Shown: positions 41,930 through 45,572, numbered from the stretch's first letter. The stretch is 64,000 nucleotides of DNA from Patescibacteria group bacterium (GCA_038062835.1 JBBTWH010000006.1:60-64059), one strand, 5' to 3'. The notes: generated from the letters alone by a model not told the origin. Numbers and translations are program-made.

Positions 41930-43435
41930 TCATTTCGGCTTGCAGTCGACGCCGTTGGTCAGGCCGCCGGTCAGGATGCGGAAGGCGACGCGGACCGTGC
42001 TGGCGTTGCCGCCGATGAGCGTGTTGCGCGTGCCGGCCAAGCCTGGGACTTTGCAGCCGCTCGAGCTCGTCTCGCAGGGATCTCCCTCGCAGACGGGCAG
42101 GAGATGGGCGGCATTTCCGACCTGCGTGCCCCAACTTGAACCGAGCGTCTCCGACGCGTGACAGTCTATGCTGGCGTCCGCTGCGGTCGACTCGCAATAA
42201 TGCATCTTCGCTTTCTCGTAACCGACGCAGTTGCTGACACGGTCGCAATAGACCGGAGCATAGATGCACTTCCCGTAGTTCGCGCTGTAGCCGCAATAGT
42301 ACATGCGCCTTCGGGCGTCAGATGAGCCGTCGTCGCGGCTGTCCTGGATGATCTTCTTCTTCGAGATTTTGAAGTCGTAGTCGCGCGGATCCCCGTTGTT
42401 CGCGGTGTTTTGCCAGTACTGGCAGCTTTCGTCGCCCTTCGGCCAATGAAGGAGCGCCGCGCGGCCGTCACTGAGGGTGTTGCACGCCTGGCATACGCCC
42501 AAACTGGTTTCGATACGCGGCACCCTATCGCCGTCACCCGCTGCCGCCACCGCCGCGACGCTCTTGTCGTATTCCTCGTTCAGCTGGGCTTGCGTGATGC
42601 CGACTCTGGGGATGCAGATCGAAAGCGTGTAGGCATCGCTGCTGACGGTGAGGCGCGTATCCTCGCAGCCGTAGTCGCCGATGTGTTCCTCGCCCTCAGC
42701 CTTCTTTTCCGCGGTATGCGCCTTGTCGCCGCGCCACAGGCACCAGATCCGCGAATCCTTCATGGTCCCGTCCGAGTTTCGGATCCTGGATTTTATGAAA
42801 CCGGCGGTCCCGCATCTGGTGTCAGGTACCGTGGTTCCACCCCCGCCTGCGGGGTTCCGGCGGGGGCCCGCTTTCGTGATCTGCTCTTCCGTGAGACCGT
42901 ACTGCTCCGCTAATTTGTCGCAGAACGGCAGGAACGTTATTTCGGTGCGGATGCCCGTGATGCCGCCGGGGACCTTAAGGGTCAGCAGCGCCGGATTGAT
43001 GGTATTGAGGATCGTGTAGGCGCTGAGCGCCAGCACCACGCCGATGAGCGCGTTGGTGATCCGTTTCTTGGCGGCGCCGATCTTGCCGGAGTCGCCGGCC
43101 GAAGTCAGGTACTGGATTCCGCCGACGACGATCATCACGGCGGCGACCAGGCCGATGATGGAGATCAGGAAGTTATAGATGATGCCGATGTACTGCGCGA
43201 GGTCGGCGAGCGTGCCTGCCGACTCCTCCCCTGGCGCCGAGGGAGTGCCCGGGATGACGATCTCAGTGACGATCGGGGCCGGCTTGTCGTCGATGGTCCC
43301 ATCCGCGTCGTATTGGGTGCCCGTCTGGCCGCCGGTTCGCTGCGCGAAAACCGGCAGCGCGATCAGGATCGCGGCGAAGAAGGCGAGGGCGACGAGTACG
43401 TTCTTACCTGTTTTCACACGCCTGGATACCGGCAA
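41930..43435 (-). CDS. Secreted Cys-rich protein with N-terminal TrbC/VirB2-pilin-like domain
   Basis: Signal peptide; 'YIGIIYNFLISIIGLVAAVMIVVGGIQYLTSAGDSGKIGAAKKRITNALIGVVLAL' two-helix pilin-like segment; ~30 Cys in C-terminal ~330 aa. Confidence 0.5.
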   Translation of the reverse strand: MPVSRRVKTGKNVLVALAFFAAILIALPVFAQRTGGQTGTQYDADGTIDDKPAPIVTEIVIPGTPSAPGEESAGTLADLAQYIGIIYNFLISIIGLVAAVMIVVGGIQYLTSAGDSGKIGAAKKRITNALIGVVLALSAYTILNTINPALLTLKVPGGITGIRTEITFLPFCDKLAEQYGLTEEQITKAGPRRNPAGGGGTTVPDTRCGTAGFIKSRIRNSDGTMKDSRIWCLWRGDKAHTAEKKAEGEEHIGDYGCEDTRLTVSSDAYTLSICIPRVGITQAQLNEEYDKSVAAVAAAGDGDRVPRIETSLGVCQACNTLSDGRAALLHWPKGDESCQYWQNTANNGDPRDYDFKISKKKIIQDSRDDGSSDARRRMYYCGYSANYGKCIYAPVYCDRVSNCVGYEKAKMHYCESTAADASIDCHASETLGSSWGTQVGNAAHLLPVCEGDPCETSSSGCKVPGLAGTRNTLIGGNASTVRVAFRILTGGLTNGVDCKPK

Positions 43436-44834
43436 TCCCGTCGCGCACGATCGTCGTCACGGTACGGATTCCGTTGATTACGCCGCCCTCGCCCCCGCAA
43501 CCCTTGCCTGGATTGTACCCGCAAGGATTGGCGTTACAGAGATCCTGTAGAGCATCGGGTCTGGCGTCGATCCGGCCGGCTTTTTCCCATCCATAAGCCC
43601 AAAAAGCATAGGGGGAGCCTACTCTTTTCATGAAGAATGGCTTGATGACGTTGTAATTGTCGCAACTCGATGTGGCCGTCGGTTCGAGGCATTCGATATC
43701 TCCCTGGGCGCAACCTTTAAGATCTGGCATCCAGCGGCATAAACTCAAGCTCGTCTTGCCGGCTTGCTTCTGGCGGTCCCATGCTCCCTCCGTCAACGCC
43801 CCGTCGTTCGCGGTCACCTGCCAATATCCGCACCTTCCAGGATGCGTCACTTGGACTCTACTAGTTTCAGCTATCTGTTGCGGACCATAATCCGTACACG
43901 TAGCGCACGTGGCGAATAGCTCGAAGGCGAACGAAATATCGCTATCCGGACGCGGAGCGCCCGTCGGCATGCGATGTTCCTCCAACCACTGCCGATACTC
44001 CGGCGTATCACCACCGAAGTCAGGCGCGGTTATGCCTTTGCTTTCGATGGACTTTTGATCTACGAACGCTAGAACTCGTTCGCTGTCAAACGGATCATTG
44101 GTGTACGCGCTCGTCGTCAATGTCTGCACGCATGTCGCGTCCATAGCGCCGTGGTATTTGCTGACCTTCAGTATGTCCGGCATATTCGAATCGGCTGGCT
44201 TTTTCGGACACGCGCTGCGATAGAGGCAAGCGAGCCGCGATTGGCCATTGGTGTATTCGCCGACCGAACCGCACTTTCCCGGCTCGCCCCAGATAGGATT
44301 CACGGTACTGCCGTCGGCCGTAACCGTGTCGCACCAGGGCATGAACGTCGTCTTGGTGCTCACCGAGGTGACGCCGACGAGCGGCTTCATCACGAGAAGT
44401 TCCGGATTGATGGTCTTCAAGATGGTATACGCGCCGAGGACGAGGACGAGGCCTATGAGGGCGTTGGCCATCCGGCTTTTGGCGGCGCCGATCTTGCTGG
44501 CGTCGCCGGCGGACGTCAGGTACTGGAACCCGCCGATAATCATCATCACCGATGCGATAAGGCCGGCGATCGAGATGAGGAAGTTGTAGATGACGCCGAG
44601 GTACTGAGCGAGGTCCACGACCTTGCCCTCGGCGAAATATTCGACCCTCTTGTCGAGCGTCTTAAAGGACTGCGTGTCCTGATCAGACGTCGGAATGATG
44701 ATGTCGGTATAGATCGGCGCCGGATCTTCCTTTTTTTCCTGCGCGAGCGCGACCCCTCCGAACGCCAGCGCAACGGCGAGAATCACGCCAAGGACGACCG
44801 CGCGCGAACCTGGCGTCAGTGACGTCTTCGGCAT
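43404..44834 (-). CDS. Secreted Cys-rich protein with TrbC/VirB2-pilin-like N-terminal domain (paralog of 41930-43435)
   Basis: Near-identical pilin-like segment 'YLGVIYNFLISIAGLIASVMMIIGGFQYLTSAGDASKIGAAKSRMANALIGLVLVL'; Cys-rich C-terminus; 32-nt overlap with downstream paralog. Confidence 0.5.
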   Translation of the reverse strand: MPKTSLTPGSRAVVLGVILAVALAFGGVALAQEKKEDPAPIYTDIIIPTSDQDTQSFKTLDKRVEYFAEGKVVDLAQYLGVIYNFLISIAGLIASVMMIIGGFQYLTSAGDASKIGAAKSRMANALIGLVLVLGAYTILKTINPELLVMKPLVGVTSVSTKTTFMPWCDTVTADGSTVNPIWGEPGKCGSVGEYTNGQSRLACLYRSACPKKPADSNMPDILKVSKYHGAMDATCVQTLTTSAYTNDPFDSERVLAFVDQKSIESKGITAPDFGGDTPEYRQWLEEHRMPTGAPRPDSDISFAFELFATCATCTDYGPQQIAETSRVQVTHPGRCGYWQVTANDGALTEGAWDRQKQAGKTSLSLCRWMPDLKGCAQGDIECLEPTATSSCDNYNVIKPFFMKRVGSPYAFWAYGWEKAGRIDARPDALQDLCNANPCGYNPGKGCGGEGGVINGIRTVTTIVRDGIAGIQACENR

Positions 44835-44837
44835 ACT

Positions 44838-45572
44838 TCAGGAATCAGAGAAGCGTTTGATAAGAGCTTCGAAAGCTTCGCGGGGGATGGCGCCTTCGAC
44901 GGGACGGCCGTTGAAGAAGAAGGTGGGCGTGCCGCGCACGCCGGCGGACGCTCCGGCGGCGGCATCGGACCGGATCTCGTCCAGGCGCGCGTGAATCTCC
45001 ATGCAGGCGGCGTAGACCTTCATATCGAGGTTGGACTGCTGGGCAGCGCGATCGAGGTCGGCGCGAGCCAGCGCGCCCTTCAAGGCGAAGAGGCGGTCGT
45101 GCATCGGCCAGAACTTGCCTTGCGACTGGGCGCAACCGGCCGCTTCGGCGGCGGCCATGGCGTCCGGATGGAGCTCCGGTACCGGGAAGTCGCGTATGAC
45201 GAAGCGCACTCGGTCGCCGTAGGCGGCGGCCGCCTCGCGGAATATGGCCGACGACTGGCCGCAGAACGGGCACTGGTAATCGAGGAACTCCACGACGACG
45301 AGCTTGGCGTCCGCGGGGCCGATCGAGGGGTCGTCGGCGGCGTCGAGATCGGCGAGTTTCACGGGGCCGGAGGCGGCTCCGGAAACGGAGAACTGGGAGC
45401 CGAACTGCGGCAGTTCCACGGCCTCGCCGCTGGCGATCTGCCGGTAGTAGACCAGGACCTGCCAGATGAAAAGCGCCGACAGCGTCAGGATCGTGCCGAC
45501 GAACAGCGACGCTCCGAACGAGGTGATGCCGCGTCGTGAGTCCATACTTCGGAAGCATACCATAATTGACAC
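44838..45572 (-). CDS. DsbA-family thiol:disulfide oxidoreductase, membrane-anchored
   Basis: 'DYQCPFCGQ' active site; N-terminal TM; first gene of operon with the two Cys-rich pilin-like genes. Confidence 0.7.
   Translation of the reverse strand: MSIMVCFRSMDSRRGITSFGASLFVGTILTLSALFIWQVLVYYRQIASGEAVELPQFGSQFSVSGAASGPVKLADLDAADDPSIGPADAKLVVVEFLDYQCPFCGQSSAIFREAAAAYGDRVRFVIRDFPVPELHPDAMAAAEAAGCAQSQGKFWPMHDRLFALKGALARADLDRAAQQSNLDMKVYAACMEIHARLDEIRSDAAAGASAGVRGTPTFFFNGRPVEGAIPREAFEALIKRFSDS

Follow-up and report, generated by a model that had tools for sequence, protein, structure and literature searches.

The locus described here raises the question of why a gene for a membrane-bound disulfide oxidoreductase should stand directly ahead of two genes for large, exported, cysteine-rich proteins that begin like type IV secretion pilins. 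It lies in a stretch of 64,000 nucleotides (nt) from a Patescibacteria group bacterium (JBBTWH010000006.1:60-64059, assembly GCA_038062835.1), hereafter the window, which represents nearly all of a 64,202-bp contig of a metagenome-assembled genome (MAG) and has a G+C content of ~64%. The three genes, with the length of their products in amino acids (aa), are as follows:

44838-45572, minus strand: dsbA-like gene, 244 aa
43404-44834, minus strand: first pilin-like cysteine-rich protein, 476 aa, 16 Cys
41930-43435, minus strand: second pilin-like cysteine-rich protein, 501 aa (TTG start), 18 Cys

We propose that this DsbA is a dedicated enzyme and that the surface modules it folds, stapled by disulfides and carried by a VirB2-like pilin scaffold, probably serve contact with the host; we judge the chances for and against this proposal to be evenly balanced. 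It agrees in outline with a preliminary description of the window, prepared from the nucleotide sequence, whose overall interpretation (DsbA family, Sec export, pilin hairpin and cysteine-rich outer part) was supported by the analysis. Its guess of a Patescibacteria source was likewise correct.

The gene arrangement is that of an operon. The genes are co-directional and tightly spaced, they end at a terminator-like element, and they are kept as a unit in different neighbourhoods. The preliminary description had already recognized three tightly packed, co-directional genes, which are present on the minus strand, but two of its distances needed correction: the spacer between the dsbA stop and the ATG of the 476-aa gene is 3 nt (AGT) and not 4 nt, and the 32-nt overlap of the 476- and 501-aa genes holds with the TTG start but is 14 nt with the GTG at 43417, where the NCBI model of the second protein (495 aa) begins. 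Overlaps of 14 nt were also found at the orthologous loci L002 and L006. The 501-aa open reading frame (ORF) corresponds to MEK7545821.1 ('MAG: pilin [Patescibacteria group bacterium]', P0001) and is identical to it from residue 7 on. The elements that delimit the unit are:

41904-41919, minus strand: terminator-like GC hairpin with T-run (CGCGCCTTCGAGCGCG TCTTTTCG), 11 nt past the stop of the 501-aa gene
38942-41824: uvrA, the next unit after the terminator-like hairpin
45546-45623: short divergent intergenic region between dsbA and secG
45585/45624-45842, plus strand: secG, divergent from dsbA

Since the GC hairpin and T-run follow so closely on the third gene, the three genes constitute their own unit, separate from uvrA. 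A scan for the sigma-70 consensus gave no promoter match, including in the dsbA/secG intergenic region, which presumably holds both promoters, judging from the arrangement of the genes. A TTGACG...CATAAC-type stretch occurs farther downstream of the terminator-like hairpin, ahead of uvrA.

The product of the first gene was assigned by sequence to the membrane-anchored DsbA-family oxidoreductases. It matched Thioredoxin_4 (PF13462; 86.7 bits, E 2.7e-24) and DSBA (PF01323; 68.2 bits, E 1.1e-18), both above threshold, and shows the CPFC active site noted in the preliminary description at residues 101-104, a single N-terminal transmembrane helix (residues about 16-43, by hydropathy) ahead of the thioredoxin domain, a GTPTF cis-Pro-type loop and an extra conserved cysteine pair (147/190). 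The membrane anchor, CPFC, GTPTF and second cysteine pair are all conserved in an alignment of six DsbA orthologues, which also points to the ATG at 45545 as the probable start, for a protein of 235 aa. Its relatives by sequence in the PDB are DsbA (4pwo/4pwp), ScsC (4gxz/4xvw) and BdbD (3eu3). The character of the N-terminal segment indicates that the catalytic domain probably faces outside the cytoplasmic membrane.

The two large proteins are paralogues, as the preliminary description had stated, with a BLASTP E value of 1e-43 and 33% identity (31-33% overall). Each begins with a signal peptide of the Sec type, which has its AxA|Q cleavage site behind A31 and is followed by a linker that is poorly conserved apart from a short P-I-x-T-E-I-x-I-P motif, and by two long hydrophobic helices joined through a short basic loop, SAGDxxKIGAAKxR (SAGDSGKIGAAKKR), so that the signal peptide, the two-helix segment and the shared motif described earlier were all recovered. 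The segments are located as follows:

44742-44834, minus strand: signal peptide of the 476-aa protein, aa 1-31
44394-44627, minus strand: VirB2-like hairpin of the 476-aa protein, aa about 70-147
43343-43435, minus strand: signal peptide of the 501-aa protein, aa 1-31
42980-43222, minus strand: hairpin of the 501-aa protein, aa 72-152

By hydropathy, the transmembrane segments are at residues 78-107 and 121-143 of the 476-aa protein and at 79-114 and 125-147 of the 501-aa protein; AlphaFold2 placed the helices of the latter at 77-111 and 116-146. The hairpin was identified as T4SS_pilin (PF18895) in both proteins, with 35.0 bits over residues 81-141 (476 aa) and 42.3 bits over residues 83-146 (501 aa), above the threshold of 26.6, and the database pre-annotation as PF18895 agrees for 49/49 homologues. 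Neither a lipobox nor an LPxTG motif was found in either large protein, and readings of the proteins as lipoproteins or sortase substrates were therefore rejected. The preliminary description had named as fatal to its interpretation the lack of a TrbC/VirB2 profile match together with a better fit to a lipoprotein or membrane anchor; with PF18895, a pilin profile, above threshold and no lipobox or LPxTG, the interpretation was not refuted.

The hairpin should have its two ends outside the membrane, and the C-terminal domain should be extracytoplasmic, because the signal peptide is predicted to be cleaved and the positive charges are in the loop. Relatives of these proteins also have cysteines in the segment that precedes the hairpin, as expected with both ends outside.

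Conservation is very unequal along the two proteins. The hairpin is 69% identical on average in the family versus 29% for the C-terminal domain (25% without cysteines), and between the two window paralogues these values are 69% and 20%. This strong constraint on the hairpin argues for specific protein contacts over passive anchoring. It bears directly on the main rival explanation, in which the proteins are independent of any type IV secretion system (T4SS) and the hairpin is a pilin-derived, two-helix membrane anchor for DsbA-folded envelope or adhesin proteins that work with no secretion machine. We consider this rival possible, if doubtful: a passive anchor would not be expected to hold 69% identity while the ectodomain drops to 25-29%.

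The C-terminal parts of the two proteins, about 320-350 aa long, are:

43407-44357, minus strand: cysteine-rich ectodomain of the 476-aa protein, aa about 160-476
41933-42943, minus strand: cysteine-rich ectodomain of the 501-aa protein, aa 165-501

Every cysteine of both proteins sits past the hairpin, and the counts are even, 16 in the 476-aa and 18 in the 501-aa protein (34 in total). The preliminary description was thus right that this domain is rich in cysteine, while its figure of about 30 per protein was too high. Cysteine makes up 5.1% and 4.8% of the two domains, compared with 0.93% for a background of 53 other window genes (binomial p about 1e-8 and 1e-7, respectively). Among 40 aligned family members, about 30% identical, cysteine is invariant at 15 positions and 95% conserved at a sixteenth; a CxxC (C315-x2-C318) is conserved. 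Apart from cysteine, only G209 and Y406 are invariant in the domain, with V, P, G, W and L residues close to invariance. The same alignment shows no conserved set of His, Asp, Glu or Ser and nothing catalytic-looking.

Structure prediction, which the preliminary description had recommended for this domain, gave a confident model. AlphaFold2 predicted a mixed alpha/beta fold with a predicted local distance difference test (pLDDT) of 85-95 within the full-length model of the 501-aa protein; modelled alone, the domain reached a pLDDT of 80 and a predicted template modelling score (pTM) of 0.83. Foldseek returned nothing at E<=1e-3 for the C-terminal domain model against the PDB, nor for the full-length model against the PDB or BFVD; in the full-length search, the helical hairpin was weakly similar to an archaeal conjugation pilus (8dfu, TM-score 0.65, target-normalised) and to other generic hairpins. 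The family profile found nothing among PDB sequences even at E = 10, and the domain has no Pfam or NCBIfam match even at E = 1. A phmmer search of the domain against 1.84 billion cluster representatives recovered 13 proteins, and the full-length ones all have a pilin-type N-terminus ahead of it. With so few matches, the domain is, as far as similarity searches can tell, a narrow, lineage-specific family, and the matches offered no clue to its function.

These results bear on two further explanations. In the first, the C-terminal domains would be enzymes or toxins, secreted but tethered by the hairpin, such as cell-wall hydrolases or anti-host effectors. Patescibacteria must breach or remodel host envelopes (PMC10633639), and two other PF18895 proteins, P0042 with a VanY domain (PF02557) and P0048 with Peptidase_M15_4 (PF13539), carry cell-wall peptidase domains, so the hairpin also carries enzymatic modules in other lineages, an observation that equally suits the hairpin as a mere anchor. 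Given the absence of any Pfam, NCBIfam or PDB sequence or fold match in the domains of the window proteins, and of a conserved His/Asp/Glu/Ser set beside G209 and Y406, we regard an enzymatic or toxic role as very unlikely.

In the second, the cysteines would bind metal, the proteins sequestering copper or zinc and the DsbA acting as an ScsC-like copper-stress factor. ScsC copper-sensitivity suppressors are indeed among the PDB relatives of the DsbA, the CxxC is conserved, and the window contains a copper-handling island (21533-29919) with two HMA/HMBD P-type ATPases, a multicopper oxidase and a DsbD_2+HMA membrane protein. The island is, however, at a distance of at least 13 kb and has a DsbA of its own beside it, a second DsbA-like gene (20288-21046, minus strand; Thioredoxin_4 6e-29, N-terminal transmembrane helix, CPFC) that may be ScsC-like rather than pilin-dedicated. 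Moreover, the cysteine-rich domains are predicted to lie outside the membrane beside an oxidase, their even-numbered cysteines are scattered through the confidently modelled alpha/beta fold with no His partners, and the dsbA-pilin pair is conserved at loci without metal genes. Metal binding is accordingly the least probable of the explanations considered and would surprise us greatly.

To return to the proposal of a dedicated oxidase with its substrates, it is supported by the conservation of the dsbA-pilin pair. In the window, the unit is flanked by housekeeping genes: uvrA, rplS, a cytidylate kinase-like gene and a pseudouridine synthase gene on one side, and secG, a family-5 solute-binding protein gene, RNase J and tRNA-Leu on the other. 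Six contigs with homologues (30-56% identity) all show secG divergent from dsbA, followed by one or two pilin-like genes and uvrA, and the divergent secG/dsbA arrangement occurs at L001, L002, L004-L006 and also in other classes. At two-copy loci the 476-type gene comes first and the 501-type second (first-position orthologues at L002 and L006), while single-copy loci carry a third subtype; from this constant order, the 476/501 duplication appears to be old and positionally conserved.

A wider survey comprised one genome per species and 80 loci, 75 of them evaluable, and used our own hidden Markov models for DsbA, hairpin and C-terminal domain. A DsbA homologue was encoded directly upstream of, and on the same strand as, a PF18895 gene at 38 of the 75 evaluable loci, in genomes that include ones labelled Uhrbacteria, Magasanikbacteria, Paceibacter and Minisyncoccota. 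Many of these loci retain the whole block of RNase J, solute-binding protein and secG genes next to dsbA, pilin and uvrA. A second dsbA-pilin pair is present in the same genomes (CP129476.1, JBAZZB01) after a gene for a protein of ~410 aa and before radA, with recG nearby. The adjacency of dsbA and pilin gene thus occurs in at least two independent neighbourhoods, the uvrA and radA contexts, and inherited synteny as its sole cause was rejected. The linkage of oxidase and substrates suggested in the preliminary description was in this way strengthened.

The ectodomains, by comparison, are exchanged. At the uvrA slot, other lineages have different cysteine-rich domains in place of the C-terminal domain: the Magasanik type contains 8-16 Cys and the Uhr type 26-48, and the domains of Magasanikbacteria- and Uhrbacteria-type genomes have no detectable homology (hhalign probability below 1%). 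PF18895 proteins adjacent to DsbA have a median of 16 Cys past the hairpin, 97% of them with at least 8, against a median of 9.5 and 62% for other PF18895 proteins (one-sided Mann-Whitney p 0.004, with loci that are phylogenetically non-independent).

The dsbA-pilin pairs repeatedly adjoin genes of DNA repair and recombination, namely uvrA, radA with recG, and recJ (window 38942-41824; L087/L088 11217-15630; L058 6517-9768; L080 6442-8235), and recG, radA and comF have been noted near T4SS loci in the class ABY1 (PMC12102498). At L080 (1155-5984), and also at L043, L062 and L072, a PF18895 gene lies between the POR_N (alpha) and TPP_enzyme_C (beta) genes of a 2-oxoacid:ferredoxin oxidoreductase operon, which starts with a DsbA gene and has recJ downstream.

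The relation of these proteins to type IV secretion was then considered. At L051, L073, L077 and L081, a PF18895 gene is directly downstream of a gene for a VirB4-like ATPase (P-loop_TraG/AAA_10). The proteins encoded there have the consensus of the window proteins, Y..Y..I..G..A..M..GG.Q..TS.G..I..AK.RI..AL.GL.L..SY.ILNTINP.LV, including the ILNTINPxLV end of helix 2, and vary in size from a classical pilin of 120 aa (L081) to 908 aa with 28 Cys (L077) and 940 aa with 35 Cys (L051). Long cysteine-rich PF18895 proteins therefore occur inside T4SS clusters. Both this fact and the sharing of the motif, ILNTINPxLV included, by VirB4-adjacent pilins across classes speak against the hairpin as a mere anchor. 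The VirB4-like ATPase gene upstream of the PF18895 genes at L077 (67-2847) bears a LAGLIDADG intein (Intein_splicing 1.5e-19).

VirB2-like PF18895 genes are widespread in Patescibacteria, often in arrays of 2-11 divergent copies (PMC12102498), and dominate freshwater-specific structural clusters (10.1101/2025.04.23.650224); the pilin genes of the T4SS cluster of Southlakia epibionticum are essential (PMC10633639, PMC12857230). Neither CP129476.1 nor GCA_030583805 is listed in the supplements of PMC12102498. Several points favour the anchor explanation. A pilin gene is near virB4 in only 1,135 of 1,948 assemblies (PMC12102498), and the module described here occupies a conserved housekeeping slot between secG and uvrA, outside any T4SS cluster; neither the scanned ORFs of the window nor the surroundings of the family loci, up to 10 kb, contained a T4SS gene.

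A different alternative is that the proteins are the major subunits of a decorated conjugative-type pilus, in which the hairpins would polymerise like VirB2 or TraA and a cysteine-rich domain would stand on the outside of every subunit. Membership of PF18895, the strong conservation of the hairpin and the prediction of both its termini outside are compatible with such a filament. In F- and T-pilus structures, VirB2-type pili have tight helical packing, in which a globular domain of ~37 kDa per subunit would be sterically demanding. In addition, arrays mix long PF18895 proteins with short ones that have no C-terminal cysteines (257 aa at L056, 239 aa at L079, 120 aa at L081), which better fits a division into major and minor pilins, and no assembly machinery is encoded nearby. 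It has been proposed in a review that Patescibacteria may build conjugative-type pili (PMC12857230); for the two proteins of the window we nevertheless consider a role as major subunits improbable. In sum, the decorated pilus, the enzyme or toxin and the metal-binding readings are all less well supported, and the hairpin as a mere anchor, with no T4SS, is the chief competitor of our proposal.

According to our proposal, the DsbA oxidase and the two modular VirB2-like pilin proteins would be co-produced from one three-gene transcript. Each pre-protein would be exported by the Sec pathway and cut after AxA (A31), and the hairpin would insert with both ends outside and the basic loop SAGDxxKIGAAKxR in the cytoplasm, so that the C-terminal domain of 320-340 aa would be exposed outside. 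There, the co-expressed, neighbouring, membrane-bound DsbA would oxidise the 16 or 18 cysteines to about 8-9 disulfides, giving a rigid extracellular module. The hairpin, the same module as in the short pilins whose genes adjoin those of VirB4 ATPases in other Patescibacteria, would be the constant carrier, either docking with a type IV secretion or pilus apparatus or being handled by it. The fast-evolving, lineage-swapped outer module would be the working end, most likely binding to the surface of the host cell. Of this scheme, the domain identities, the signals of topology, the conservation of the cysteines, the operon structure and the conserved linkage of dsbA and pilin genes are observations; the action of DsbA on the two proteins, their disulfide state, their contact with a T4SS and the binding role are inferred.

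Several observations weigh against this proposal. With regard to family membership, the likeness to TrbC/VirB2 pilins claimed in the preliminary description was borne out by PF18895, above threshold in both proteins, but not by PF04956 (TrbC/VirB2) itself, whose scores of 16.2 bits (E 0.012, 476 aa) and 21.5 bits (E 2.8e-4, 501 aa), over model positions 35-98 only, are under the threshold of 27.9 bits. NF045849, a pilin-like family of Mycoplasma integrative and conjugative elements (ICEs), also remained under its cut-off of 40 bits, with 32.4 bits (E 5e-8, 476 aa) and 28.5 bits (E 9e-7). By profile comparison, the hairpin belongs to PF18895 and is not a demonstrable member of PF04956, and the T4SS_pilin family appears related to TrbC/VirB2 at a sub-threshold level only. 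Furthermore, the 440-470 mature residues are four to five times those of any characterised VirB2-type pilin.

With regard to the machinery, a Pfam scan that took in practically every credible ORF of the 64 kb window, a search for other T4SS components that the preliminary description had advised, found no gene for VirB4, VirB6, VirB3/PrgI, VirD4 or a relaxase, and no T4SS machinery gene was present within 6-10 kb at L001-L006, L087 and L088. Of the surface appendage or adhesin system suggested at the outset, the link of a disulfide oxidase with its likely substrates was retained, while the term appendage found no support, as no T4SS gene was found among the scanned ORFs of the window. The evidence for a binding role is confined to the evolutionary pattern and the absence of enzyme signatures, and the locus counts are not phylogenetically independent. 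Finally, no DsbB or VKOR re-oxidising partner was found among the ORFs of the window, where the only related membrane protein is the DsbD_2+HMA protein of the copper island (28534-29919), and Patescibacteria are generally without a respiratory chain (PMC10633639); for both reasons, the route by which the DsbA would be re-oxidised is a puzzle.

In the literature searched, no description was found of a dedicated dsbA-pilin operon, of its conservation across classes in two contexts, or of unrelated cysteine-rich ectodomains swapped on a constant hairpin. The means by which ultrasmall Patescibacteria recognise host cells and stay attached to them are an open question, and the T4SS and pilin genes are essential, with unknown function, in the one species tested (PMC10633639, PMC11665869). 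The locus supplies a testable class of candidates: pilin-scaffold proteins with hypervariable, lineage-specific cysteine-rich outer domains and a co-encoded oxidase. It also poses the biochemical problem of DsbA re-oxidation in organisms generally lacking a respiratory chain, adds a domain that is modelled with confidence but has no relative detected in the PDB, and provides a genomic signature, dsbA directly 5' of a PF18895 gene, that can be used for mining host-interaction genes.

More tentatively, and with the balance of probability against it, the pair could be a phylum-wide, core-genome display module in which a dedicated DsbA and modular VirB2-type pilins allow a T4SS or pilus apparatus to present interchangeable, disulfide-knotted host-recognition ectodomains of unseen folds. 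If true, these would be the first VirB2-class pilins with grafted globular modules, and the oxidase would be the first one dedicated to pilins in a monoderm T4SS. Bolder still, the repeated position of the pairs ahead of uvrA, radA/recG and recJ could reflect a part in DNA uptake; the adjacency to repair genes could be either functional or mere conserved housekeeping synteny.

Other features of the window, without relation to the three genes, were as follows:

34228-34303, minus strand: tRNA-Ile with anticodon UAU (ARAGORN; Rfam 71.7 bits), an uncommon bacterial way of reading AUA
2881-2967, plus strand: tRNA-like gene of 87 nt (Rfam 49.2 bits), with no anticodon from ARAGORN ('tRNA-???')
55473-55978, plus strand: RNase P RNA class A (151 bits), with sizeable insertions, as its 506 nt compare with a 367-position model
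12253-15945, minus strand: run of small proteins with an N-terminal transmembrane helix and no Pfam match
12852-13373 and 14258-14776, minus strand: clear paralogues within this run
14800-15945, minus strand: secreted protein with a SpaA_2 prealbumin-like domain, adjoining the run
39098-42139, plus strand: ORF of 1013 aa antisense to uvrA and to the 3' end of the 501-aa gene

Further long antisense ORFs exist; these, like the last one listed, are an artefact expected at 64% G+C and are non-genic.

Among known systems, the closest are the PF18895 pilins of the T4SS array of S. epibionticum (PMC10633639, PMC12102498), which share with the window proteins the Pfam family, the hairpin consensus and a patescibacterial host. 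Tandem divergent paralogues occur in both, with 31-33% identity here and an average of 25% in published arrays (PMC12102498). Unlike those of S. epibionticum, the genes described here are at a secG/uvrA slot and not in a T4SS cluster, they share an operon with DsbA, and their products carry a cysteine-rich C-terminal domain of 320-340 aa that is predicted to be disulfide-rich.

The TrbC/VirB2 pilins (PF04956; Agrobacterium tumefaciens VirB2, RP4 TrbC and F TraA) are alike in signal peptide, two hydrophobic helices and short basic loop, and a weak profile similarity covers the model's C-terminal two thirds (E 2.8e-4). Both window proteins have this VirB2-type architecture of cleavable signal peptide, two helices and basic loop, but neither is a small hairpin-only protein when mature (about 445 and 470 aa). 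They are below the Pfam threshold and four to five times larger, and have a monoderm host and no VirB genes nearby. The Mycoplasma ICE proteins Mbov_0395 and MMCAP2_0565 (NF045849) likewise come from monoderms and an MPF-FATA-type context, and the hairpin aligns with positions 10-76 of the 80 of their model; they differ in being of about 80 aa, without an ectodomain, and the window proteins score below the 40-bit cut-off.

A modular design is known from another pilin class. PilB and PilC of Streptococcus sanguinis are modular type IV pilins, in which a functional module has been added to a pilin domain. The window proteins would follow the same design of a conserved polymerisation or anchoring module and a variable globular adhesion module. 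This is an analogy only, as type IV pilins have a class III signal peptide and the VirB2-like hairpin belongs to an unrelated class.

As regards the oxidase, MdbA of Actinomyces and Corynebacterium and BdbD of Bacillus subtilis (which acts on the ComGC pseudopilin) are membrane-bound oxidoreductases that fold pilins in monoderms. The DsbA of the window resembles them in its single N-terminal membrane anchor, thioredoxin fold, outward CxxC and, by our proposal, Sec-exported surface or pilus proteins as substrates, and its sequence matches those of 4pwo/4pwp, DsbA chains of actinobacterial type, and of BdbD 3eu3. MdbA and BdbD have a general housekeeping role as oxidases and usually a VKOR or BdbC partner; the present dsbA, by contrast, is tied by its operon to specific substrates, and the window showed no partner for its re-oxidation. 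Genetic coupling of a disulfide-handling enzyme to T4SS- or pilus-type genes is also found in the F plasmid, where TrbB and TraF are thioredoxin-fold proteins of conjugative T4SS operons. Those are periplasmic, DsbC-like isomerases of diderms that serve many Tra proteins, whereas here a DsbA-type oxidase is encoded immediately 5' of the pilin-like genes.

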